NCBI GenBank assembly: GCA_022826805.1
Contig: JAJDUH010000045.1
Coordinates: forward strand, 83,562 to 147,561
DNA from: Candidatus Poribacteria bacterium
Lineage (GTDB): Bacteria; Poribacteria; WGA-4E; WGA-3G
Reading direction: 5' to 3'
Length of the DNA stretch: 64,000 bases
The notes below the pieces were generated by a model, which made no database searches, was not told the origin of the DNA, and saw only the letters and a program-made list of their open reading frames with translations. This document shows, in pieces, positions 2,307-44,815 of the stretch. A program made the position numbers and the translations under genes. How positions within the stretch are numbered: position 1 is the first letter of the stretch; each line of letters opens with the position of its first letter.

Positions 2307-3308
2307 ATGAATAGACCACCAGAAACTTTTGTTTTAGTAAACGAAGAACGGCTTCTTAATTTCTCTACGGCTTGCTTTGAGAAAGCAGGTCTCACACACG
2401 ATCACGCCGCCCTCATCAGTCGCCTACTCGTTAATTCCGATTTACGAGGTGTCCGCAGTCACGGTACACGGACTGTTAATCGGTATTGTGCAGGTTTTGA
2501 AAACGGAAGTCTCAACCCACGCCCAAACATCCGCGCCATCCATGAAACGCCGACTACAGTTGTGCTTGATGGCAACGGTACGCTCGGCTACCTTCCAATG
2601 GTCCGTGCCACGGAACACGCCATCGCCAAAGCGAAAGAAATCGGCATCGGGATGGGACTCGTCCGTTATATCGGGCACTACGGCTCCGCGGGACACTATG
2701 CCCGTATGTGTAACGAAGCCGGATGCATTGGGTTTTCGGTACAGGGATCCCAGAATCACGGTAATGCCAGAAACCAAGATCCTAAACCCCAGATTGGTTA
2801 TTATGGTAATCCGCCTATCTGTTTTGCCATCCCTTCTGGTGACGAGCCACCGGTCGTGCTGGATGCCGCAACATGTATTATGGCAGATTACCAACGCGGC
2901 CCCGAATTCGATGCCCTGCTTTCAATGATACCGGCGGCTTTCTTCAAAAGTATCGGCTACACTGCTGTGGCACATCTGCTTGGCGGAGGACTGACCGGCT
3001 TCACCGAACCAGCACCCGAAGACACCGCAAAATGGAAACCTCCACAAGGCGGTATGGTCCTCGCAATAAATATTGAATCTGTTGTGCCACTTGATGTTTT
3101 TCACGCTGAAGTTGACCGTATGGTCCGGGATGTCCGCGAAACCTACGAACCGATGCCGGGAACTGACAGAGCACTGCTACCGGGGGCGATTGAAATGGAA
3201 CGCACAGAACAGCATCGCCGCTCGGGGATCCGCTATGGTGAAATGGAACAGGAATCCGCACGCGAAGTCAGTGAACGGTTAGGCGTGCCATTGCCATGGG
3301 ATGAATGA
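2307..3308 (+). CDS. Ldh_2 family oxidoreductase, paralog 2 (tandem duplicate)
   Basis: Same motifs; long stretches near-identical to 1272..2276. Confidence 0.85.
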   Translation: MNRPPETFVLVNEERLLNFSTACFEKAGLTHDHAALISRLLVNSDLRGVRSHGTRTVNRYCAGFENGSLNPRPNIRAIHETPTTVVLDGNGTLGYLPMVRATEHAIAKAKEIGIGMGLVRYIGHYGSAGHYARMCNEAGCIGFSVQGSQNHGNARNQDPKPQIGYYGNPPICFAIPSGDEPPVVLDAATCIMADYQRGPEFDALLSMIPAAFFKSIGYTAVAHLLGGGLTGFTEPAPEDTAKWKPPQGGMVLAINIESVVPLDVFHAEVDRMVRDVRETYEPMPGTDRALLPGAIEMERTEQHRRSGIRYGEMEQESAREVSERLGVPLPWDE

Positions 3309-16135: not shown

Positions 16136-17464
16136 ATGGGCACAGAAAATCGACCTGAGCTTATCAGGTTAATTACAGTGTGCGCGCTTATTCTGCTTTT
16201 TATTTTATTAATCGGGGCATTACGCGCACGAGAACATTCATTTTTCCGTATCGGTGCCATTAAGAGGGCAAATCAAGAGACACTCCCTGACACTGTCAAA
16301 CGGCGTGATAAACTGCAAAGCGATCGGTGGCCAGAAGGGTTTCGGCTCCTTCGCTACTGGTGGGTTGGCGGTTCAGCCGTTTATATCGCAGAGATGGATC
16401 GCACAGCGGCAGGTCTTCAATTTGATGTGGAACTCGCTAATAATAAAATCCTCGGACGCGAGACCATCACTGGTGCCACAAGACGACTCAGAAAAAAAGA
16501 GGACCCACCCCTCGCAGGTGTCAATGGGAGTTTCGGCATTCGAGAAGACAATCTCGGACGCGGTGGTATGATGTTTAATCTACACATCCAAAACGGTGAA
16601 CTGGTAAGTATTCCAATCCTGCTTGACAGATGGGGCTACTCGCCCCCATCTCCGTGGGGTGAAACCAGTTTCGGCGTAACCCCTGACGGTGATTTTCTTA
16701 TGGATGCGGTACAACTAAACGGTAAACTCCGTATTGAGAACGGTACCGCCGACCCGCTCTCAATCGACGCCGTTAATCAAATCTGTGACGCCTCGTGTCC
16801 TGTAGTTCTGTTTACGCCACGCTTTGGACGCACAACGCTAACCCGTCGATGCTATGAGTTCACACTTAGACAGATAAAACTCCCGCTCACCGGAAAATAT
16901 GAAAGCAGATTCGTTGTGACCGCGGTAAACCCGCGAGGTAATAGCACCATTCCGTCTGACGGTATCGTCCTTGCGATTGAACCACGACTCGCACGCGACT
17001 GGGAGAATAAAATTACCAAATCCACAGCAGGCACCTTGGAAATTGCGATCACACCTAAAAAGTGGCAACAGGTGCAGCAGGGCGTTGGCGGCAACCTACG
17101 GCTTGTCCGAGACGGCAAAGTTGAATCTGAACTTATTAACTTTGGAGAGTCGCGGGGAGGCAGCGCGTATAGGCATCGTAACGGTGCGCGTCGTCATCCG
17201 CGTAGTGCCTTAGGCTTCAACGACAAAAAACTGTTTCTTATCACTATTGACGGTAGACAACCCGGTTACAGTATGGGAATGACGCTCTATGAAATGGGAA
17301 CATTTTTCAGTGAACTCGGCATCAAACACGCTATCAACTTCGACGGTGGGAGTTCCTCAACACTCTGGGCATTGGGACGAGTTGCAAACAGCCCCGCACA
17401 CGGCTACGAGCGTCGTATCTTCAATATTGCCATGATTCGCGTCAGAGACGAAAATTCACAATGA
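16136..17464 (+). CDS. Phosphodiester glycosidase (NAGPA/DUF2233) family protein, membrane-anchored
   Basis: N-terminal TM; HPRSALG, DGRQ and NFDGGSS motifs. Confidence 0.8.
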   Translation: MGTENRPELIRLITVCALILLFILLIGALRAREHSFFRIGAIKRANQETLPDTVKRRDKLQSDRWPEGFRLLRYWWVGGSAVYIAEMDRTAAGLQFDVELANNKILGRETITGATRRLRKKEDPPLAGVNGSFGIREDNLGRGGMMFNLHIQNGELVSIPILLDRWGYSPPSPWGETSFGVTPDGDFLMDAVQLNGKLRIENGTADPLSIDAVNQICDASCPVVLFTPRFGRTTLTRRCYEFTLRQIKLPLTGKYESRFVVTAVNPRGNSTIPSDGIVLAIEPRLARDWENKITKSTAGTLEIAITPKKWQQVQQGVGGNLRLVRDGKVESELINFGESRGGSAYRHRNGARRHPRSALGFNDKKLFLITIDGRQPGYSMGMTLYEMGTFFSELGIKHAINFDGGSSSTLWALGRVANSPAHGYERRIFNIAMIRVRDENSQ

Positions 17465-19829: not shown

Positions 19830-20021
19830 ATGCGTAACTATCGAAAATTCAAGGACTATCATATTGAGCAGCTACGTGACCCGGAGGATGCCAAAATATA
19901 TCTTTCCGTCGCACTTGAGGATTATGAAAAAGACAAGAACATAGACGCGTTTTTACTCGCGGTCAGAGATATAATAGAAGCACAAAAAAACAATCACACA
20001 CAGCATGAGTCATCTGCATAA
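19830..20021 (+). CDS. Truncated or orphan addiction-module antidote (HI1420-like N-terminal part)
   Basis: EQLRDPEDAKIYLSVALE..AFLLAVRDI pattern; no HTH half and no adjacent toxin. Confidence 0.5.
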   Translation: MRNYRKFKDYHIEQLRDPEDAKIYLSVALEDYEKDKNIDAFLLAVRDIIEAQKNNHTQHESSA

Positions 20022-21147
20022 AACTGCGTCTTCTGTCTACATTCATATCCCGTTCTGCGCCACGAAGTGCTATTACTGCGCCTTCAATACATACACTTTT
20101 CACAAAGAACAGGCAAACGCATACCTACAGGCACTTCAAACGGAGATGGAACTGTATGCCCCGGAAACCGACCTACTACAAACCATCTTCATCGGCGGTG
20201 GCACCCCCTCTATCCTCTCTGCAAACGCTTTAGCACAACTATTTGCGGATATACACCAGAACTTCACGCTATCTCCAGACGCTGAAATCACTGTTGAGTG
20301 TAATCCTGGAACGGTTGATGCTGAAAAATTGAGTGTCATGCGGGATAACAGCGTGAACCGACTCAGTTTCGGTCTACAAGCGATGCAGGACGAAACCTTA
20401 AAGCAGTTGGGCAGAATCCACACCGTCTCGGAATTTCTACAGAGTTATCGCCTCACACGCAAACACGGCTTTGAGAACATTAATATTGATCTCATCTTCG
20501 CGCTTCCCGAGCAAAGCATGGCAGCGTGGCACCACACCTTAAATGCTGTAATTGCCCTTGAACCCGAACACATTTCAGCCTACAACCTTGTGATGGAGGA
20601 GGAAACCCCGTTTTATGAACAGTGGCAAGCCGGGGAACTCCCCCTCCCTTCCGAGGACACCGAAGCCGACATGTTCCAATACACAATTGAGACATTGACA
20701 GCACATGGATACACGCATTATGAAATTTGCAACTTTGCGAAACACAACCACTTTGCGAAACACAATCTCGTCTATTGGAACAATCAACCGTGTATCGGAC
20801 TCGGTGTAGGCGCGTGTGGGTACATCAATGGTAGGCGTTACGCTAACATCCGAGGCATTGCACCTTATATCAAAAAACTCTCCAAGCGTAGCAAACCCAT
20901 TGCCGATACCGAACACCTAACAGGGCATGCTGAAAAGGCAGAAACGCTTATGCTTGCGCTTCGTAAACGAGAAGGCATCTCCCTTGAAGTCTATCAAAAT
21001 CGCTTTGGTGAGGGAATTGAGGTGGCGTTTGGAGACATTCTCAACAAATGGAGCGATTCACGCCTGTTAGAACAGACGGATACACATCTGAGACTCACCG
21101 ATCGCGGGCTCCTTTTGGCTAACGAGGTCTTCATAGAGTTGATGTGA
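20005..21147 (+). CDS. hemW: Radical SAM heme chaperone HemW (HemN-like)
   Basis: YIHIPFCATKCYYC, GGGTPS, YEICNF, HNLVYW. Confidence 0.88.
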   Translation: MSHLHKTASSVYIHIPFCATKCYYCAFNTYTFHKEQANAYLQALQTEMELYAPETDLLQTIFIGGGTPSILSANALAQLFADIHQNFTLSPDAEITVECNPGTVDAEKLSVMRDNSVNRLSFGLQAMQDETLKQLGRIHTVSEFLQSYRLTRKHGFENINIDLIFALPEQSMAAWHHTLNAVIALEPEHISAYNLVMEEETPFYEQWQAGELPLPSEDTEADMFQYTIETLTAHGYTHYEICNFAKHNHFAKHNLVYWNNQPCIGLGVGACGYINGRRYANIRGIAPYIKKLSKRSKPIADTEHLTGHAEKAETLMLALRKREGISLEVYQNRFGEGIEVAFGDILNKWSDSRLLEQTDTHLRLTDRGLLLANEVFIELM

Positions 21148-25563: not shown

Positions 25564-26322
25564 ATGCGAAATATCAAACTCGTGCTTGAATATGACGGAA
25601 CCCACTATCATGGATGGCAGACGCAACCGAACTTGCCAACAATCCAAGACACAATTGAGGAGGCGCTGGCACAGTTAACCAAAACCCCGATACAGATCAT
25701 CGGGGCAGGAAGAACCGATACAGGTGTCCATGCCGAGGGGCAGGTCGCTAACTTCGGGACGGATTCACAGATGCCCATTGTCGCATTCCAAAAAGGACTC
25801 AACGCTATTTTACCACGGGATATCGTCGTCTGTTCCGCAACAGAAGTGTCTCCAGAGTTTCATGCCCGTTTCAGTGCGACAAGTCGGCGATACCGGTATA
25901 CAATCTTGAACCGAGCATACCCGAGCGCACTTTCGCGACAGACGAGTTACTTCTTTCCAGCAGCAATTGACGTGCCACTGGCAAACACCCTCTGCCAAGT
26001 ACTAGTTGGCAAACACGATTTTTCCTCTTTCCAAAAGACAGGTAGCGATCGGAGCAATCCTATCTGTGAAATTTATGAGGGACACTGTTGGCAGAAAGAG
26101 CCTTATGTCTACTTTGAAATCGAAGCCGACGCGTTTCTGCGAGGGATGGTCCGCGCCCTCGTCGGCACTATCCTGAAATGTATCAAGGAAGACGATGCCG
26201 AAGCCGAGCTGCATCGCATTTTAGACACCAAAGACAGAGTCGCAGCAGGAACATCAGTACCTGCACACGGATTGTCACTCATTTGTGTTAAATATAACGA
26301 TGCACTACACCTTTTACAGTGA
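25564..26322 (+). CDS. truA: tRNA pseudouridine(38-40) synthase
   Basis: YDGT.YHGWQ, GRTDTGVHA, FHARF, FLRGMVR. Confidence 0.95.
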   Translation: MRNIKLVLEYDGTHYHGWQTQPNLPTIQDTIEEALAQLTKTPIQIIGAGRTDTGVHAEGQVANFGTDSQMPIVAFQKGLNAILPRDIVVCSATEVSPEFHARFSATSRRYRYTILNRAYPSALSRQTSYFFPAAIDVPLANTLCQVLVGKHDFSSFQKTGSDRSNPICEIYEGHCWQKEPYVYFEIEADAFLRGMVRALVGTILKCIKEDDAEAELHRILDTKDRVAAGTSVPAHGLSLICVKYNDALHLLQ

Positions 26323-37637: not shown

Positions 37638-38294
37638 ATGCAACGCATCGTTGATATTGGCAGACGTATCGAACTCATACCAATGGATCCGCACTTTCAC
37701 GACATCACCATCGGATTGTATCAACAACAATCGGTCAATGCTATTATTGGAAAAGCGACCCCTGTCTTTCTGGTGCATACCTACAGCCACATTGCAGGTG
37801 CTGCCGAAAGAATTGAGAACGTGCGACAAGCGATGCAGACGCTCGGAGGAATGCTGAAAACACCTGAAGGTTTACTCTATTTTCCGTGTGGAAGTGCCCA
37901 TCAACTCGGGTGTCGTCGCGTCTTTTTAGAAGCCTGTAAACTCGCCTCACACACCGACGCTGAACCTCGACCTTTAAACATACTGGATAAGAAATCACGA
38001 CTTACTATCACCGTGGATTCGATCGGAGATGGGGGCTATCGGGTTACAGCAGATGGCGAAGGAAGACGCGCTGCAAGGCGAGTTTCAGCGATTGCAGGGG
38101 GCTTAATGAAATTGGGCGAAATGGAGAGCGTTGAAACCGATGGCGGCGATACTGTCGCTTTCGATTGCGGATATACACACGATGCCCTCGTTGGACTCCT
38201 ACTTACCCGTGCGCCAAACGTCAGAATTACTTTACGAGAAGAAGAAATGAGTGCCACCCGCGGTGTGCTTTCCGCCCCAAGTCAACAGCTCTAA
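37638..38294 (+). CDS. Hypothetical protein
   Basis: 218-aa ORF in operon context. Confidence 0.6.
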   Translation: MQRIVDIGRRIELIPMDPHFHDITIGLYQQQSVNAIIGKATPVFLVHTYSHIAGAAERIENVRQAMQTLGGMLKTPEGLLYFPCGSAHQLGCRRVFLEACKLASHTDAEPRPLNILDKKSRLTITVDSIGDGGYRVTADGEGRRAARRVSAIAGGLMKLGEMESVETDGGDTVAFDCGYTHDALVGLLLTRAPNVRITLREEEMSATRGVLSAPSQQL

Positions 38295-39134: not shown

Positions 39135-40175
39135 GTGGAAAATCAAACCCCCAAATCAATGAGCAGTCGCGAACGTGTACTCGCCGCGCTTCACAATGAA
39201 CCTACTGACCGCACCCCGGTTTGTAATCCTACATCCGTTGCAACTGTTGAGCTGATGGACCTCGTCGATGCGCCCTTCCCACAAGCGAATCGAGAACCGG
39301 AACTCATGGCGCGCCTCGCTGCGACAGGATACACTGAACTCGGATTTGACACTATCATGCCAGTCTTCACGATTATCCAAGAATCAAGTGCACTCGGATG
39401 CCAGATTCAGTGGGAACAGAAAGACAACTGGCCGACCGTTCGGATGCGTGAACCGATTTGGGAAGACGTTGACGACATCACGATTCCGGACGATTTTTTG
39501 ACGCACCCGGATACCCAATGTGTACTTGAAGCGATTAAAATCCTGAAGAAGGAATACGGGGATGAAGTCGCTGTAATTGGGAAAACGATGGGACCTTGGT
39601 CGCTCGGCTATCACTGTTTCGGGGTCGAACCTTTTCTGTTGTTGTCCCTTGACGATCCCGGTAAAACGAAACTCGCTCTTGATCGGATGAAGGAAGCCAC
39701 CGTACAATTTGGTGTAGCACAGATCGAAGCGGGGGCAGATGCACTCACGCTTCCAGATCACGCTACAGGCGATTTGGTGAGTGGGGAATACTACGAACGT
39801 TACCTTCGGGATCTTCACATTGAATTTGTTGAGCGTATCCCTATCCCTTTGATTCTTCATATCTGTGGACGCACGATTGATAGGATGGAGTACATCGCGC
39901 AAACCGGTATGGCTGCCTTCCATTACGACTCCAAAAATGAGCCGCAGGAATCCATGGACATCGTGCAAAAACGCATTGCCCTTGTCGGAAACATTAACAA
40001 CCCTGAAACGCTGTTTGCCAAAGAACCAGAGCATGTTAAAGCGGAAGTTACGAAAAATCTTGACGCAGGCATTCCACTGATTGGACCGGAGTGCGCGATC
40101 CCCCTACAAACAACCATCGAAAACCTTCAAGCGATCCCTGAAGCTGTCCGAGAATGGCACCGCGCGAACGCATAA
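39135..40175 (+). CDS. MtaA/CmuA-family methylcobamide methyltransferase (URO-D superfamily)
   Basis: SSRERV, HICG Zn motif, GNI, PEC. Confidence 0.8.
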   Translation: MENQTPKSMSSRERVLAALHNEPTDRTPVCNPTSVATVELMDLVDAPFPQANREPELMARLAATGYTELGFDTIMPVFTIIQESSALGCQIQWEQKDNWPTVRMREPIWEDVDDITIPDDFLTHPDTQCVLEAIKILKKEYGDEVAVIGKTMGPWSLGYHCFGVEPFLLLSLDDPGKTKLALDRMKEATVQFGVAQIEAGADALTLPDHATGDLVSGEYYERYLRDLHIEFVERIPIPLILHICGRTIDRMEYIAQTGMAAFHYDSKNEPQESMDIVQKRIALVGNINNPETLFAKEPEHVKAEVTKNLDAGIPLIGPECAIPLQTTIENLQAIPEAVREWHRANA

Positions 40176-40195
40176 TCACCCATGTGGAAAAACTT

Positions 40196-40804
40196 ATGAG
40201 ACAATTGATCTGTTTTTTGCTAATAGCAACGTTGACACTGACGTTCCTAACCTTCGGGCATACACAAAATGTGGACTTTGATCCGCTGAGTGCTTCTGAC
40301 GTCAACACTGATGGCGTTGTCAATATTCTCGACCTAACCTTCATCGCCTCCCGTTTTAGTGAAAACCTCACCATAGACCAACATCCGAACCCAGATGTTA
40401 ACGGGGACGGGACTGTGAATATCCTCGACTTAACACTGGTCGCAAGTTATTTAGGCAAAAGATCTGGGATTCCTTTTGAGGTCACGGACGCGAATTTTGA
40501 TGAGATCGTTTTGGGTTCTGAGCCGCCTATTGTTGTAGAATTTAAAGACGATACCTGAATATTTTGCATACGTATGCGACCGGTGGTCGCAGAGGTAGCA
40601 TTGGAATATCGCGAGAACTTCAGTTTCGTCAAGCTGGATGTGCGCACCCAACGGGAGAAAACGGCTGAATACCAAATTCGGGGAACGCCCACTTATATTG
40701 TATTTAAAGATGGCGCAGCTATAGGCGGATTTGCTGGGGCAATGCCTAAGGCTGAATTGGTACAGCGAATTCTTGAAATCTTAGGAACTGAAGAAAACGA
40801 GTAG
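40196..40804 (+). CDS. Putative exported selenoprotein: signal peptide, dockerin-like domain, thioredoxin with UxxC (TGA 40556-40558 read as Sec)
   Basis: ORFs 40154..40558 and 40574..40804 are in frame; join reads VVEFKDDT-TGA-IFCIRMRP; DVNTDGVVNILDL and DVNGDGTVNILDL; cis-Pro GTPT. Confidence 0.85.
40575..40591 (+). promoter_or_regulatory. Candidate bacterial SECIS hairpin 1
   Basis: TGCGACC-GGT-GGTCGCA begins after a 16-nt spacer from the TGA. Confidence 0.55.
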
Positions 40805-40841
40805 CGTGTTGATCACAAACTGATACACAAGAGGATAACAC

Positions 40842-42677
40842 ATGAAAAAAATAATTTGCTTATTGCTAACGCTAAGTCTGACCCTACTACTCATGCCAGC
40901 AAGCTACGCTCAAGATACAAATCTTGACCTTCTGAGGGCATCGGATGTAAATGGTGATGGCGTGGTAAATATCCTTGATCTGACGCTTATTGCCTCGCGT
41001 TTCGGAGCAATACCCACCGAAAACCAGCGTTTAAATCCAGATGTAAACGCCGACGGCTTTGTCAACATCCTTGATTTGACACTCGTTGCCGGGCATTTGG
41101 GCAAAACCGTCCGTCCACCCGTTTCATTCGTTAGCGCAAATCCAGGAATCGATTCGCAGCTTGATGTGAACGCGACGATTACCTTGACCTTTGACGATAC
41201 ACCTGATGACGTTACCGCGAACACAGGGATTGTCATAATCACTGATGAGACTGTGACAATCACGGGGGCCTTCGATCCGGGTTCTCTCGCTTTGACGGTT
41301 ACCTGGGCAGATGGCACACAAACACTTAACTATACCATCAGGCAACCAGCGGCATTCGTTAGTGTCGATCCCGCAATCGGTTCGCAGCTTGAGACAGACA
41401 ATACTATTACGTTGACCTTTGATAATGCACCAGAGGACGTCACTGTGAGTACGGGTACTGCTACAATTACCGATAAGACCGTGGTAATCACAGGTCCATT
41501 TGATCCAGGTCTTCTCGTCTTGACCATCACTTGGAAGGATGGAACGCAAACGCTCAATTATACCGTCAGACAACCGGTGGCGTTTGTTAGAGCGAAACCA
41601 GCAGCTGGTGCAACGCTCACCATTGATGCCCCTATTACGCTGACCTTTGATAATGCACCAGAGGACGTCACTGTGAGTACGGGTACTGCTACAATTACCG
41701 ATAAGACCGTGGTAATCACAGGTCCATTTGACCCAGGTCTTCTCGCCTTGACTATCACTTGGAAAGACGGAACGCAAACGCTCAACTATACCGTCAGACA
41801 ACCGGTGGCATTCGTTAGGGCAAATCCAACAAGTGGTGCGGAACTTGATGTAGGCGATACCATTACCCTTACCTTTGATAACCGCCCAAACAATGTTACA
41901 GTGAGCACTGGAAATGTTAGAATCACTGGCAGGAATGTGAGAATTACAGGTCCCTTTGATCCGGGTTCCCTCTCACTGACTATCACTTGGGCGGATGGGA
42001 GCAAAAGACTCAATTATACTGTCCGGACACCAGACACCGAAGCACCTCGAATTACGGGGAGAACCGTCAGCGACGGTGACAAAGACGTTGATCCCGATAC
42101 GATTAACACCAGAGCACGCATCGAAGTTGAGTTCAGCGAAGAGGTAACCGGCAATATTGTTCTACGAACTGAAGCAGGTGTCAATGCCGGTTGGCGTGGA
42201 CAAGTTGAAGGCAAGAAAGCCACCCTTGAACTGGTCAGAGGTAGAGAACTTGATAACGCGACCACCTACGTTATTGCTGGGAAAGTTAGCGATGCCGCTG
42301 GTAACGAAACCGATCTCAAGATTACCTTCACGACTGAGAGCAAGACCTCTGGTGTCCCCTTTGCGGTTACCGATGCGACTTTTAATTCGCTCGTTCTCCA
42401 ATCAGAAGTACCTGTCGTGGTCGAGTTTTGGAAAGATGGGTGACCATTCTGTCGAAGAATGGTGACAGTTGTCGCCGAAGCTGCCTCAGAGAAGCGAGAC
42501 ACATTTGCCGTCGCGAAAATGAATATTGCCCAGAGTCGGCAAACGCATCAAAAATATCGGGTTATAGGACATCCAACTTATATCGTGTTCCAAGATGGAA
42601 AGGTTGTCGGTCGTTTTGGAGGCGTGATCCCGAAACAGCAGCTGGTTAATAATATTCTTAATGCGATAAATAATTGA
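40842..42677 (+). CDS. Putative exported selenoprotein: signal peptide, dockerin-like domain, 4 x 76-aa Ig-like repeats, Big_5-like domain, thioredoxin with UxxC (TGA 42441-42443)
   Basis: ORFs 40842..42443 and 42459..42677 are in frame; join reads VVEFWKDG-TGA-PFCRRMV; cis-Pro GHPT. Confidence 0.85.
42461..42476 (+). promoter_or_regulatory. Candidate bacterial SECIS hairpin 2
   Basis: GGTGAC-AGTT-GTCGCC (one G-U pair) begins after a 17-nt spacer from the TGA. Confidence 0.5.
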
Positions 42678-42701
42678 TGACAGATCATTATTCGCGAGGT
42701 A

Positions 42702-42767
42702 TTGTACCGCAAACTGTTAGTTTGCGAAGGCTGCGCGAAGACCACAGTCTAACAGATTGTGGTACAA
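42702..42767. repeat. Imperfect inverted-repeat doublet (REPIN-like)
   Basis: TTGTACCGCAAACTGTTAG ... CTAACAGATTGTGGTACAA. Confidence 0.55.
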
Positions 42768-42803
42768 ATGCGCTGTTAAGTCTCACACTGATTACTGACA
42801 TTA

Positions 42804-42836
42804 AGCGGCGAGGTTTTCCAACCTCGCCGTTTTTTT
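42804..42836 (+). terminator. Intrinsic terminator after the selenoprotein pair
   Basis: CGGCGAGGTT-TTCC-AACCTCGCCG followed by T7. Confidence 0.75.
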
Positions 42837-42874
42837 GTCAAAATTACCTAAGTTGCACAATTTAACAGATTATG

Positions 42875-44815
42875 CTACAACTCATCTCGATGGTAAAACC
42901 ACCACTCTAAAAGTAAAATACCAAACGCAAGGAGTGCTGGAAAACGCCATATCTCCTGTGCTATCGGTTGTAGACCTGTTTCAAGCGATGCCGATTTTTC
43001 TTCCGCTTCTATCGTCGTAGCATGTGGAAGTGCGGATTCTGCAGCATCAAGCAGATTAACCGTGAAGCGTTCTAATTCTCTACCATCATCGGCGAAGAGT
43101 GTGTAGACACCCACCTGATCTGTCTGGGTGAATATCGAATCATCCAATCTGACCACTGTTTCATCCGGTTTTCGCACGTGAAGTGGTGTATCTGTGTTTT
43201 TTACTGCGACTATCACCTGTTCTCCCGTCCGAAAAGCGTGCCGAGTCCGCTCTTCTTGCGACACAATGGGTTGAAGCGTAGCGGTTCCTGCTTCCAACCA
43301 CGCCAAACACTGATAAATAAACAGCGGTCCCGCTGGTATTGTCATTGCAAAGGAAGAGATCTCTGGATTAAATGCGTCAAACTCGAAAACAAGGAATCGG
43401 GTGTCCGCTTCAGCACCGAACCAGATTAATGAACCCTTCTCCGTTTCAACAAGAGAATGTCCCCAGAGTGGTAAGTTCCGATATGTAGATTCACGCACCT
43501 GCAAACCTTGTAGGGATACACCTGCCATGAGTGGGTGCGCATCATCTGTTTTGACAACGCGCGCAGGTCCGTTACTGGTTTCTATAGAAGAAGCCTCTCC
43601 TTGCATGAAGGGTAGATTGTCGTCCGGATTGATAAAGATTAGATGCGTTTTGGCGCCAATCTCAGAAAAATTACCGAAAGCCTCGCGTCCGCTGAAGGTG
43701 CCACCATCGAAAATCGCTATATCAGCATCACCAGTTCCGTGATAATCCGCTGGTGGAACTATATCTAACACCACATGTCTTCCGTATGTGCGCAACAGAT
43801 CAGGCAATAAAGATTTCCGATTGTCACTGACGAGTAAGATTCGCAAAGGTGAGAGGCCTGATAAGATCACTGAAGCAGTGTTATCAAGCGGAAAATCGTC
43901 CTCTATCCCAAGATGGACACTGATAACCTTTCCTTCTAAACCGCTCGGATTGCCTGAAAACAGAACCGACTTGGTTTCTGCTGGCGGAATAGATATCACC
44001 CTGTCATCGAGTGGCGCGCTTTCCACCCGCAATTGAACGTTGAATTCTCTGGCGGTATCTGTGAAATTTTGGATACGAACCAGCACCTCGTACCAGTCTT
44101 CTATACTGTCAACGCTAAGTAGAACGATACCGATATTCTCAGCATCTCCGCCTATTGCAACCTTATGGAGCGGCAGGGATATATCCGGTAGCTTTTCAAA
44201 AGTATCGCTGATAAAGAAAACACTATCCTGCGGTGCGTCTGCATAGCGGGTTACAGCATCAAAAACAGGACGGAGATTGCGTGGTGCGTGGGTTGGAGGA
44301 ATATTTTCTATGGCACTCAGAAGTTGTGTGGTATCAGTTGTAAACGCTTGTTGGATATAGGAGTCCGCCCCTTCCCAGTAACGGGTGGGATGGCTTCGGC
44401 TTTCGGCTTGCGTCACCATGAGCATAATCCCGCCGCCTGCGGAAATTTGCTCAACCTGCGCCTGTGCCGCCTGCTTTGCGAGTGCAAGACGCGTTTGCCC
44501 CATCTCTTCCGACAACATACTCGCAGAGTTGTCAACTATAATGACCGCCTTTCCGGGCATGAATCCAGGTCTGCGCAGGACAGGACGTGCCACACTGAGC
44601 GTAAGGAGTAACAGAAAAAGCACCTGTAAGAGTGGAAGGAGTAGGTTCCGAAGCCGTTGGAACGGGACATTGGCTCTCCGGTCTTCGTCAGCAGATAGCC
44701 AATGCATAATGCTCGGAACGAGGTAGTTGTAGCGGCGCAACTTCAGGAAATGAAGTAGCACTATGATTGGAATTATACCTAACAGATAAAACGCGGCAGG
44801 ATTCAGAAATAGCAT
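42875..44815 (-). CDS. BatA/VWA-domain membrane protein
   Basis: FLNP N-terminus, LHFLK, ARP, MIDAS DNSASM, C-terminal LLLEWW TM. Confidence 0.85.
   Translation of the reverse strand: MLFLNPAAFYLLGIIPIIVLLHFLKLRRYNYLVPSIMHWLSADEDRRANVPFQRLRNLLLPLLQVLFLLLLTLSVARPVLRRPGFMPGKAVIIVDNSASMLSEEMGQTRLALAKQAAQAQVEQISAGGGIMLMVTQAESRSHPTRYWEGADSYIQQAFTTDTTQLLSAIENIPPTHAPRNLRPVFDAVTRYADAPQDSVFFISDTFEKLPDISLPLHKVAIGGDAENIGIVLLSVDSIEDWYEVLVRIQNFTDTAREFNVQLRVESAPLDDRVISIPPAETKSVLFSGNPSGLEGKVISVHLGIEDDFPLDNTASVILSGLSPLRILLVSDNRKSLLPDLLRTYGRHVVLDIVPPADYHGTGDADIAIFDGGTFSGREAFGNFSEIGAKTHLIFINPDDNLPFMQGEASSIETSNGPARVVKTDDAHPLMAGVSLQGLQVRESTYRNLPLWGHSLVETEKGSLIWFGAEADTRFLVFEFDAFNPEISSFAMTIPAGPLFIYQCLAWLEAGTATLQPIVSQEERTRHAFRTGEQVIVAVKNTDTPLHVRKPDETVVRLDDSIFTQTDQVGVYTLFADDGRELERFTVNLLDAAESALPHATTIEAEEKSASLETGLQPIAQEIWRFPALLAFGILLLEWWFYHRDEL

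Follow-up and report, generated by a model that had tools for sequence, protein, structure and literature searches.

Thioredoxins with a UxxC active site, in which U is selenocysteine (Sec), are listed under PF00085 among the experimentally supported prokaryotic selenoprotein families in a 2026 review, which also covers exported selenoproteins with a thioredoxin (Trx) fold, namely the families of Prx-like thiol:disulfide oxidoreductases and UGC-containing TlpA disulfide reductases (PMC13188914). Here we describe a gene at positions 40842-42677 of a 64,000-nt stretch of DNA (hereafter the window) from a Candidatus Poribacteria genome of 5.09 Mb in 80 contigs, and we hold with high confidence that it encodes a 611-aa selenoprotein in which an in-frame UGA specifies Sec and which would act as an exported, dockerin-tethered thiol-disulfide oxidoreductase. 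The predicted protein shares with the UxxC thioredoxin selenoproteins a classical fold, Sec in the place of the attacking cysteine (Cys), a selenocysteine insertion sequence (SECIS) within the coding region just after the UGA, and the existence of Cys homologs. In contrast, its thioredoxin domain forms the end of a long and putatively exported protein that also carries a dockerin, four repeats and a Big_5 domain, and the dipeptide of its active site is P-F rather than the G-P of the TrxA encoded in the same genome. To our knowledge, the known UxxC thioredoxin selenoproteins are small cytoplasmic proteins.

The likeness to the Prx-like and TlpA families lies in predicted extracytoplasmic thiol-disulfide chemistry and in a Sec residue within a Trx-fold active site, but those families are redoxins of the PF00578 / cd02966 lineages, and no dockerin or immunoglobulin (Ig)-like stalk has been described for any of them. 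Like the type I dockerin enzymes of cellulosomes, the poribacterial protein has a duplicated calcium-loop dockerin, and cohesin modules are encoded in its genome. Unlike them, it carries the dockerin at the N-terminus, directly after the signal peptide; its cargo is a redox domain and not a carbohydrate-active one; its host is a sponge symbiont and not a cellulolytic anaerobe; and its cohesin binding is a prediction. With UxxC thioredoxins already listed among the selenoprotein families and exported selenoproteins of the Trx fold on record, this kind of protein is not new, while its architecture and setting appear to be. In the literature surveyed, mainly titles and the opening lines of abstracts, no dockerin-bearing selenoprotein is described, nor any poribacterial selenoprotein beyond [NiFeSe] hydrogenase, with the proviso that the supplementary tables of PMC13582414 and PMC5649159 might list more.

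Under translation table 11, the open reading frame (ORF) 40842..42443 encodes 533 aa and ends at the in-frame TGA (42441-42443), which lies in the string GAT GGG TGA CCA TTC TGT (42435-42452). When this TGA is read as U, the frame continues for 77 codons to a TGA at 42675-42677 and the product has 611 residues, with U at codon 534; by our own arithmetic, the chance of 77 stop-free codons following a random TGA is about 2-3%. The original prediction, which proposed a hidden 611-aa selenoprotein with a U-P-F-C motif at this site, is borne out by the reading frame and the motif, by the conservation of the TGA, by the Sec machinery of the genome, and by a hairpin downstream of the UGA.

A six-frame search with the part of the protein that comprises Big_5 and thioredoxin returned, in all 36 sampled genomes of the same genus, a full-length match containing exactly one TGA. 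We also surveyed the family in 112 genomes, counting matches at E <= 1e-45, and found it in 62 of the 64 that belong to the genus, as well as in one genome from each of three other genera. Among the 71 matches, with protein identities of 42-84%, the reading frame and exactly one in-frame TGA were retained in 69. The TGA falls in the same alignment column in all 40 loci of the first set as well as in three further loci, and the site reads U-P-[F/S/A/T]-C in 37 of these 40 loci, U-H-F-C in two, and U-L-F-C in one.

These observations bear directly on the alternative that the TGA is a true stop, such that the gene encodes a 533-aa dockerin-stalk protein and the 72-aa ORF at 42459-42677 is either a gene of its own or a dead relic. 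Public gene calls do end at this codon, and the truncated form predominates in public protein sets: most of the 120 clusters listed cover 63-64% of the query region, and one cluster, named 'dockerin type I domain-containing protein', terminates at ...F-V-K-D-G, while only three among the 120 clusters listed cover at least 99% of the region, all of them Cys forms. TGA is, moreover, a normal stop elsewhere in the window. Such a stop is nevertheless hard to reconcile with the retention of frame and TGA in nearly all matches at the protein identities given above, with the coding selection downstream of it (pN/pS 0.47), with contiguous Cys forms, and with the presence of both a full Sec machinery and a UGA-linked hairpin. 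It would also split the thioredoxin domain into two halves, neither of which would be expected to fold alone, and we consider a true stop exceedingly improbable.

Coding selection was estimated from 666 pairs among 37 orthologs, taking codons +16 to the end as the downstream portion. Downstream of the TGA, pN was 0.253 and pS 0.542, as compared to a pN of 0.184 and a pS of 0.539 upstream, which indicates that the 77 codons after the TGA are under purifying selection. The Pfam thioredoxin match spans the TGA, which sits at the first Cys of the CxxC motif. Cys is aligned with U in lipoprotein-type paralogs (CPFC, CPPC), in the TrxA of the same genome (CGPC), in the ortholog of one further genome (G066, TGC), and in three full-length metagenomic relatives (CPFC). 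Relatives that lost Sec have Cys in its place and have kept the entire thioredoxin domain.

The original prediction further held that selenium supply could toggle two products. On this view, decoding of the UGA would be partial by design, and both the complete redox enzyme and a 533-aa dockerin stalk that lacks the active site would be of use. At any bacterial Sec codon, RF2-dependent termination is in competition with the insertion of Sec, and the truncated product would retain its dockerin, repeats, and Big_5 domain intact. However, this form ends 26 residues into the thioredoxin domain, leaving what would be an unfolded tail; the lineages that lost Sec went from TGA to TGC with the whole domain, and not to a stop; and the downstream codons combine equal synonymous divergence with purifying selection. 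Nothing in these data speaks for a function of the truncated form, and we regard a selenium switch as very improbable.

A complete Sec machinery is encoded in the same genome. The tRNA-Sec (78.1 bits, gathering score 47) is called by ARAGORN as tRNA-SeC with anticodon tca and lies 150 nt downstream of selB (332.6 bits, cut-off 242.25); selA (589.4 bits, cut-off 267.9) and selD (360.7 bits, cut-off 125) are likewise present. Because selD contains one in-frame TGA, the SelD of this genome is itself predicted to be a selenoprotein. These genes also bear on a selenium-free reading, in which the UGA is read by a standard tRNA (near-cognate Trp or Cys) or TGA serves as a sense codon. Bacteria do show low-level near-cognate read-through of UGA, which is a general point and none specific to this reading. 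In the window, TGA terminates the selenoprotein gene and four others among the 36 ORFs of at least 250 aa, and the long ORFs are not littered with TGA codons; since TGA ends these genes, it is not a general sense codon here. The site, moreover, corresponds to the catalytic Cys in CxxC, a position at which no residue other than Cys or Sec is functional, and a complete set of selA, selB, selC and selD accompanies the UGA-coupled hairpin. We assign the selenium-free reading next to no probability and conclude that the UGA is very probably decoded as Sec. As a separate observation, TGA is the rarest stop among the long ORFs of the window (5 of 36, including this gene).

For the putative SECIS, we aligned 60 nt from the TGA in the 40 loci, with column 1 at the TGA. 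RNAalifold returned a single hairpin, with pairs at columns 21-24/33-36 and 26/31 and the apical loop AGUU, which in the window (42461-42476) begins 17 nt after the UGA. At pair 23:34, 28 loci have C-G, six U-G, three A-U and three U-A, and none has a broken pair; the fifth pair is a C-U mismatch in 38 of the 39 distinct sequences. Codon choice in this region is frozen. Among sequences with the consensus residue, codons +6 to +13 and +15 have a synonymous entropy of 0.0, as compared to 0.3-2.0 at nearby codons, with GCG used in 28 of 28 cases, CCA in 37 of 37, GTT in 38 of 38, and GTC in 38 of 38. In the same way, pS over codons +6 to +15 is 0.071 versus 0.54 in the flanks.

The bacterial SECIS model, as given in the review, has a loop of 3-9 nt, a stem of 4-16 bp, a G within the first two loop bases, a spacing of 16-37 nt from UGA to apical loop, and an energy of <= -7.5 kcal/mol (PMC13188914). 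The window hairpin has a 4-nt loop with G as its second base followed by U, a stem of 5-6 bp, an apical loop that begins 23 nt after the UGA, and a local fold of -9.2 kcal/mol, and the 60-nt fold of the orthologs is at or below -7.5 kcal/mol in 39 of the 40 loci. As in the consensus of Zhang and Gladyshev (PMC13188914), it is a small hairpin downstream of the UGA, in which a G followed by U stands early in the apical loop. It differs from that consensus in its very short stem, its AGUU tetraloop, its mostly C-U fifth pair, and the absence of an Rfam match. The SECIS of Escherichia coli fdhF is of the same general form, with a spacing of 11 nt from UGA to hairpin as compared to 17 nt in the poribacterial gene.

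Where Sec has been lost, the hairpin is degraded. Two TGC (Cys) copies in G066 keep three and four of the five pairs, with folds of 0.0 and -4.0 kcal/mol, and nine other Cys thioredoxins of these genomes keep zero to two of the five. The hairpin thus appears to be coupled to the UGA, having decayed where the ortholog has TGC. A lower extension of the stem (columns 18-20 with 40-42) pairs in 99.7% of cells, with pair 18:42 occurring as AU, GU or GC; it is left uncertain because computed stability falls when it is included. A competing hairpin right after the UGA (columns 4-10 with 16-22) pairs in 86.4% of cells, which is no better than shuffles (166/500), and for that reason was not taken as a conserved element. 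The Rfam scan produced three weak matches, all off the hairpin site and two of them on the terminator.

The proposed architecture of a dockerin, an Ig-like stalk, and a C-terminal thioredoxin fold agrees with Pfam, AlphaFold2 (AF2), and Foldseek. Pfam assigns Dockerin_1 (PF00404) to residues 34-86 at 45.1 bits (cut-off 22.9), where two D-V-N-x-D-G repeats are visible, Big_5 (PF13205) to residues 398-498 at 61.2 bits (cut-off 23.6), and Thioredoxin (PF00085) to residues 508-605 at 66.4 bits (cut-off 23.5); the dockerin was also matched in a whole-genome scan (C71:124502-124660). An AF2 run with 33 orthologs as the alignment gave a mean pLDDT of 88.3 and a pTM of 0.39, a combination that would fit well-defined domains on a flexible string. 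The signal-peptide region is modeled as a helix (residues 2-16) with pLDDT <50, and its sequence pattern is, by eye, conserved among orthologs.

The stalk is modeled as five beta-sandwich domains, comprising four 76-aa repeats and Big_5, with strands of pLDDT >90 and Foldseek matches to tandem Ig arrays and S-layer proteins. At the DNA level, TRF finds a period of 228 nt, and two copies are 92% identical (41404-41839). Complete orthologs range from 454 to 768 aa (33 sequences), so stalk length changes fast between species, and the stalk apparently gains and loses repeats quickly. In two orthologs (L031 and L039), a second Big_5 module is inserted mid-stalk.

The last domain has the order beta-alpha-beta-alpha-beta-alpha-beta-beta-alpha in the AF2 model, with U534 immediately before helix 535-550, and the structure prediction is thereby in agreement with the Trx fold that had been proposed. 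P578, at the cis-Pro position, is invariant in all 33 aligned orthologs and aligns with the I-P-T loop of Trx1. Foldseek superposes the domain on Caulobacter Trx1 (6esx_B) with a TM score of 0.91 on the target and an rmsd of 0.8 over 103 columns at 37% identity, and Trx1 (6esx) is also the best solved relative by sequence (E 5e-19). The earlier description of the site as glutaredoxin-like is apt for the P-F dipeptide but not for the domain, which is a classical thioredoxin (PF00085); PF00462 Glutaredoxin is absent from the Pfam matches, and the only related entry there is a Glrx-like DUF836 at 18.8 bits, under its cut-off of 26.

Several observations weigh against the interpretation of the gene as an exported selenoprotein and need to be set beside this evidence. 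In the family survey, two of the 64 genomes of the genus (G109 and G126) have no match at E <= 1e-45, one of the two being a single contig that is 96% complete, and none of 40 genomes of a sister genus has a match at this threshold. Covariation in the hairpin is thin, with change on both sides only at core pair 23:34 and outer pair 18:42; three of the five core pairs are invariant, and the genomes are close kin rather than independent samples. In the lower extension, the window's own 19:41 is A-C. The hairpin is small (median local fold -6.0 kcal/mol over the 40 loci) and is present in the 60-nt minimum-energy fold of only 21 of the 40. The minimum-energy fold of the window itself favors the competing hairpin, which overlaps the SECIS base, its 70-nt fold is unremarkable (z -0.81), and no Rfam family is found at 42441-42500 up to E 10. 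At the protein level, the TIGR01068 equivalog model scores 64.9 bits, below its cut-off of 96.8, the generic NCBIfam thioredoxin models are all below cut-off, and no NCBIfam selenoprotein model applies; the domain is best classified as a member of the thioredoxin family and not as a TrxA equivalog. Export, in turn, rests on a signal peptide recognized by eye.

Building on the observed recoding signature, domain architecture, and fold, we infer from sequence the course of export, cohesin tethering, direction of reduction, electron supply through DsbD, placement in the periplasm or at the cell surface, and the nature of the substrates. SelB with Sec-tRNA(Sec) would be recruited by the hairpin in the coding sequence, 17 nt after the UGA, and Sec would be inserted at codon 534. 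Because a signal peptide is present, the product is predicted to leave the cytoplasm, by way of the Sec export pathway. The N-terminal dockerin would then tether the protein, holding the thioredoxin domain distal on the stalk. The product is most likely a tethered extracytoplasmic thiol-disulfide oxidoreductase with the active site U534-P-F-C537, in which the selenolate at the start of helix alpha-2 would attack a substrate disulfide or oxidized thiol, forming a selenenylsulfide that would be resolved by Cys537. Catalysis most likely runs toward reduction, for which a DsbD-type transporter may supply the electrons; a DsbD-type membrane domain is encoded in the genome (177.4 bits).

The main functional rival accepts a genuine selenoprotein but assigns to it another chemistry, either as a DsbA-like oxidase or isomerase acting on exported proteins, or as a scavenger of peroxide or other oxidants displayed at the envelope. 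The P-F dipeptide resembles the more oxidizing CPxC of glutaredoxin and DsbA, not the CGPC of thioredoxin, and Sec is typical of peroxide-reactive sites. The genome, in addition, shows only two DSBA matches, both weak and partial (27.6 and 26.5 bits). Conversely, classical reducing thioredoxins are the closest counterparts of the domain in sequence and fold alike, the genome encodes an electron importer of the DsbD type, and the redox potential of model glutaredoxins falls when Sec takes the place of Cys. We consider an oxidase or oxidant-scavenger role unlikely. Coordinates of the features at this locus and of related genes are given in Table 1.

Table 1. Features of the selenoprotein locus and related genes. 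Positions are those of the window, except for selD, which is given by genome and contig.
Feature	Position	Strand	Evidence or remarks
Complete selenoprotein gene (predicted)	40842..42677	+	611 codons + TGA stop
Shine-Dalgarno-like AGAGGA (putative)	40830..40835	+	6 nt 5' of ATG; read from the sequence
Signal peptide, residues 1-23, probable cleavage after A-S-Y-A	40842..40910	+	n-h-c pattern by eye
Type I dockerin, two D-x-N-x-D-G-x-V-N-I-L-D calcium-loop repeats	40941..41099	+	PF00404
Stalk, four 76-aa (228-nt) all-beta Ig-like repeats, residues 93-396	41118..42029	+	TRF, AF2, Foldseek
Big_5 Ig-like domain, residues 398-498	42033..42335	+	PF13205, E 1.8e-16
Thioredoxin domain, residues 508-605	42363..42656	+	PF00085, AF2, Foldseek 6esx_B
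UGA very probably read as selenocysteine U534, attacking-Cys position of CxxC	42441..42443	+	Conservation, alignment
TGT, Cys537, predicted resolving cysteine of U-P-F-C	42450..42452	+	Invariant in 33/33 aligned orthologs
Putative SECIS core hairpin GGUGAC-AGUU-GUCGCC	42461..42476	+	RNAalifold, pair counts, frozen synonymous sites, local fold
Possible lower SECIS extension, columns 18-20 with 40-42 (uncertain)	42458..42482	+	
True stop TGA	42675..42677	+	Second TGA immediately after
Intrinsic terminator-like hairpin and T run	42803..42840	+	13-pair stem, 7 G-C pairs, then T tract
hemE (uroporphyrinogen decarboxylase)	39135..40175	+	Pfam URO-D, E 1.9e-66
Companion selenoprotein gene (predicted), signal peptide + dockerin + thioredoxin	40196..40804	+	202 aa; start ATG 40196 by eye
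Other TGA-terminated long ORFs	2307-3308, 16136-17464, 20005-21147, 25564-26322		
selD	G000:C45:41287-42210 (L017)	minus	Hairpin loop AGG, 17 nt after UGA

The selenoprotein gene is the last in a same-strand run that begins with hemE and continues with a gene for a 202-aa dockerin-thioredoxin protein, and the terminator-like hairpin lies between it and a convergent BatA/VWA gene. Among sequencing runs searched for words of 40100-42900, no RNA run was listed, and one DNA/unknown run contained 0.20 of the sampled words. hemE is probably in the same transcription unit as the selenoprotein gene, and it lies inside the thioredoxin gene cluster in other genomes as well (L151-L153); this clustering may be connected with haem or cytochrome maturation. 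Several relatives have, just upstream of hemE, a further gene for a lipoprotein with one stalk repeat and a CPPC thioredoxin, and this third gene is absent from the window. The ORF at 37638-38294, considered as a candidate for a third gene of the cluster, is unrelated and has no Pfam match.

The 202-aa companion is predicted to be a second selenoprotein. Its Sec codon would be the TGA at 40556-40558, within the motif T-U-I-F-C, and Pfam matches it to Dockerin_1 (70.6 bits) and Thioredoxin (71.7 bits). A hairpin with arms at 40575-40581 and 40585-40591 starts 17 nt after this UGA, which is the same spacing as in the 611-aa gene, and folds at -17.5 kcal/mol over 48 nt (z -3.61). Orthologs of the companion mostly have one TGA, and one (L155) has Cys. 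A metagenomic protein (P0043) has the order dockerin, thioredoxin (Cys, F-C-G-F-C), stalk repeat, Big_5, and by its sequence looks like a fusion of these two neighboring gene types.

Genome-wide scans gave seven cohesin and 34 dockerin matches, and because of these it is plausible that the dockerin tethers the selenoprotein to cohesin-bearing proteins of the same genome. A cohesin and a dockerin module occur together in several large ORFs (C2:27223-27750, C49, C22, C77, and C73 of G000), a hint of scaffolding on more than one level in a symbiont that is not cellulolytic. A complex prediction of dockerin residues 24-92 with the cohesin of the L159 ORF gave a score of 0.09 against a mark of 0.32, with no bearing either way. 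Some relatives of the Big_5-Trx(U) module, as well as Cys paralogs, have by eye a lipoprotein-type signal peptide in place of the dockerin, and this replacement suggests a shared theme of a thioredoxin tethered outside the cytoplasm by exchangeable anchors.

Since public gene calls are cut at the UGA, the active domain of these proteins is invisible to functional surveys of sponge microbiomes. The locus adds to the bacterial selenoproteome an apparently unreported architecture that is genus-wide in uncultured sponge symbionts and is paired with a second dockerin-Sec-thioredoxin gene. It also provides a natural experiment on SECIS evolution, with synonymous sites frozen under UGA and hairpin decay after the change to UGC. 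The retention of Sec machinery by sponge symbionts has been noted previously (PMC5649159), and the proteins described here are candidates both for what the non-cellulosomal cohesin-dockerin modules of Poribacteria hold and for why sponge symbionts keep this machinery. More speculatively, and on a conjecture that we ourselves hold to be doubtful, these sponge symbionts might display Sec thioredoxins extracellularly at the tips of Ig stalks, with lengths that vary between species, that are plugged by dockerins into cohesin scaffolds, as a redox counterpart of the cellulosome. Its targets, through thiol or oxidant chemistry, would be matrix proteins of the host or oxidants that the host produces. 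If true, this would give a concrete reason for the enrichment of selA and selB in sponge symbionts.

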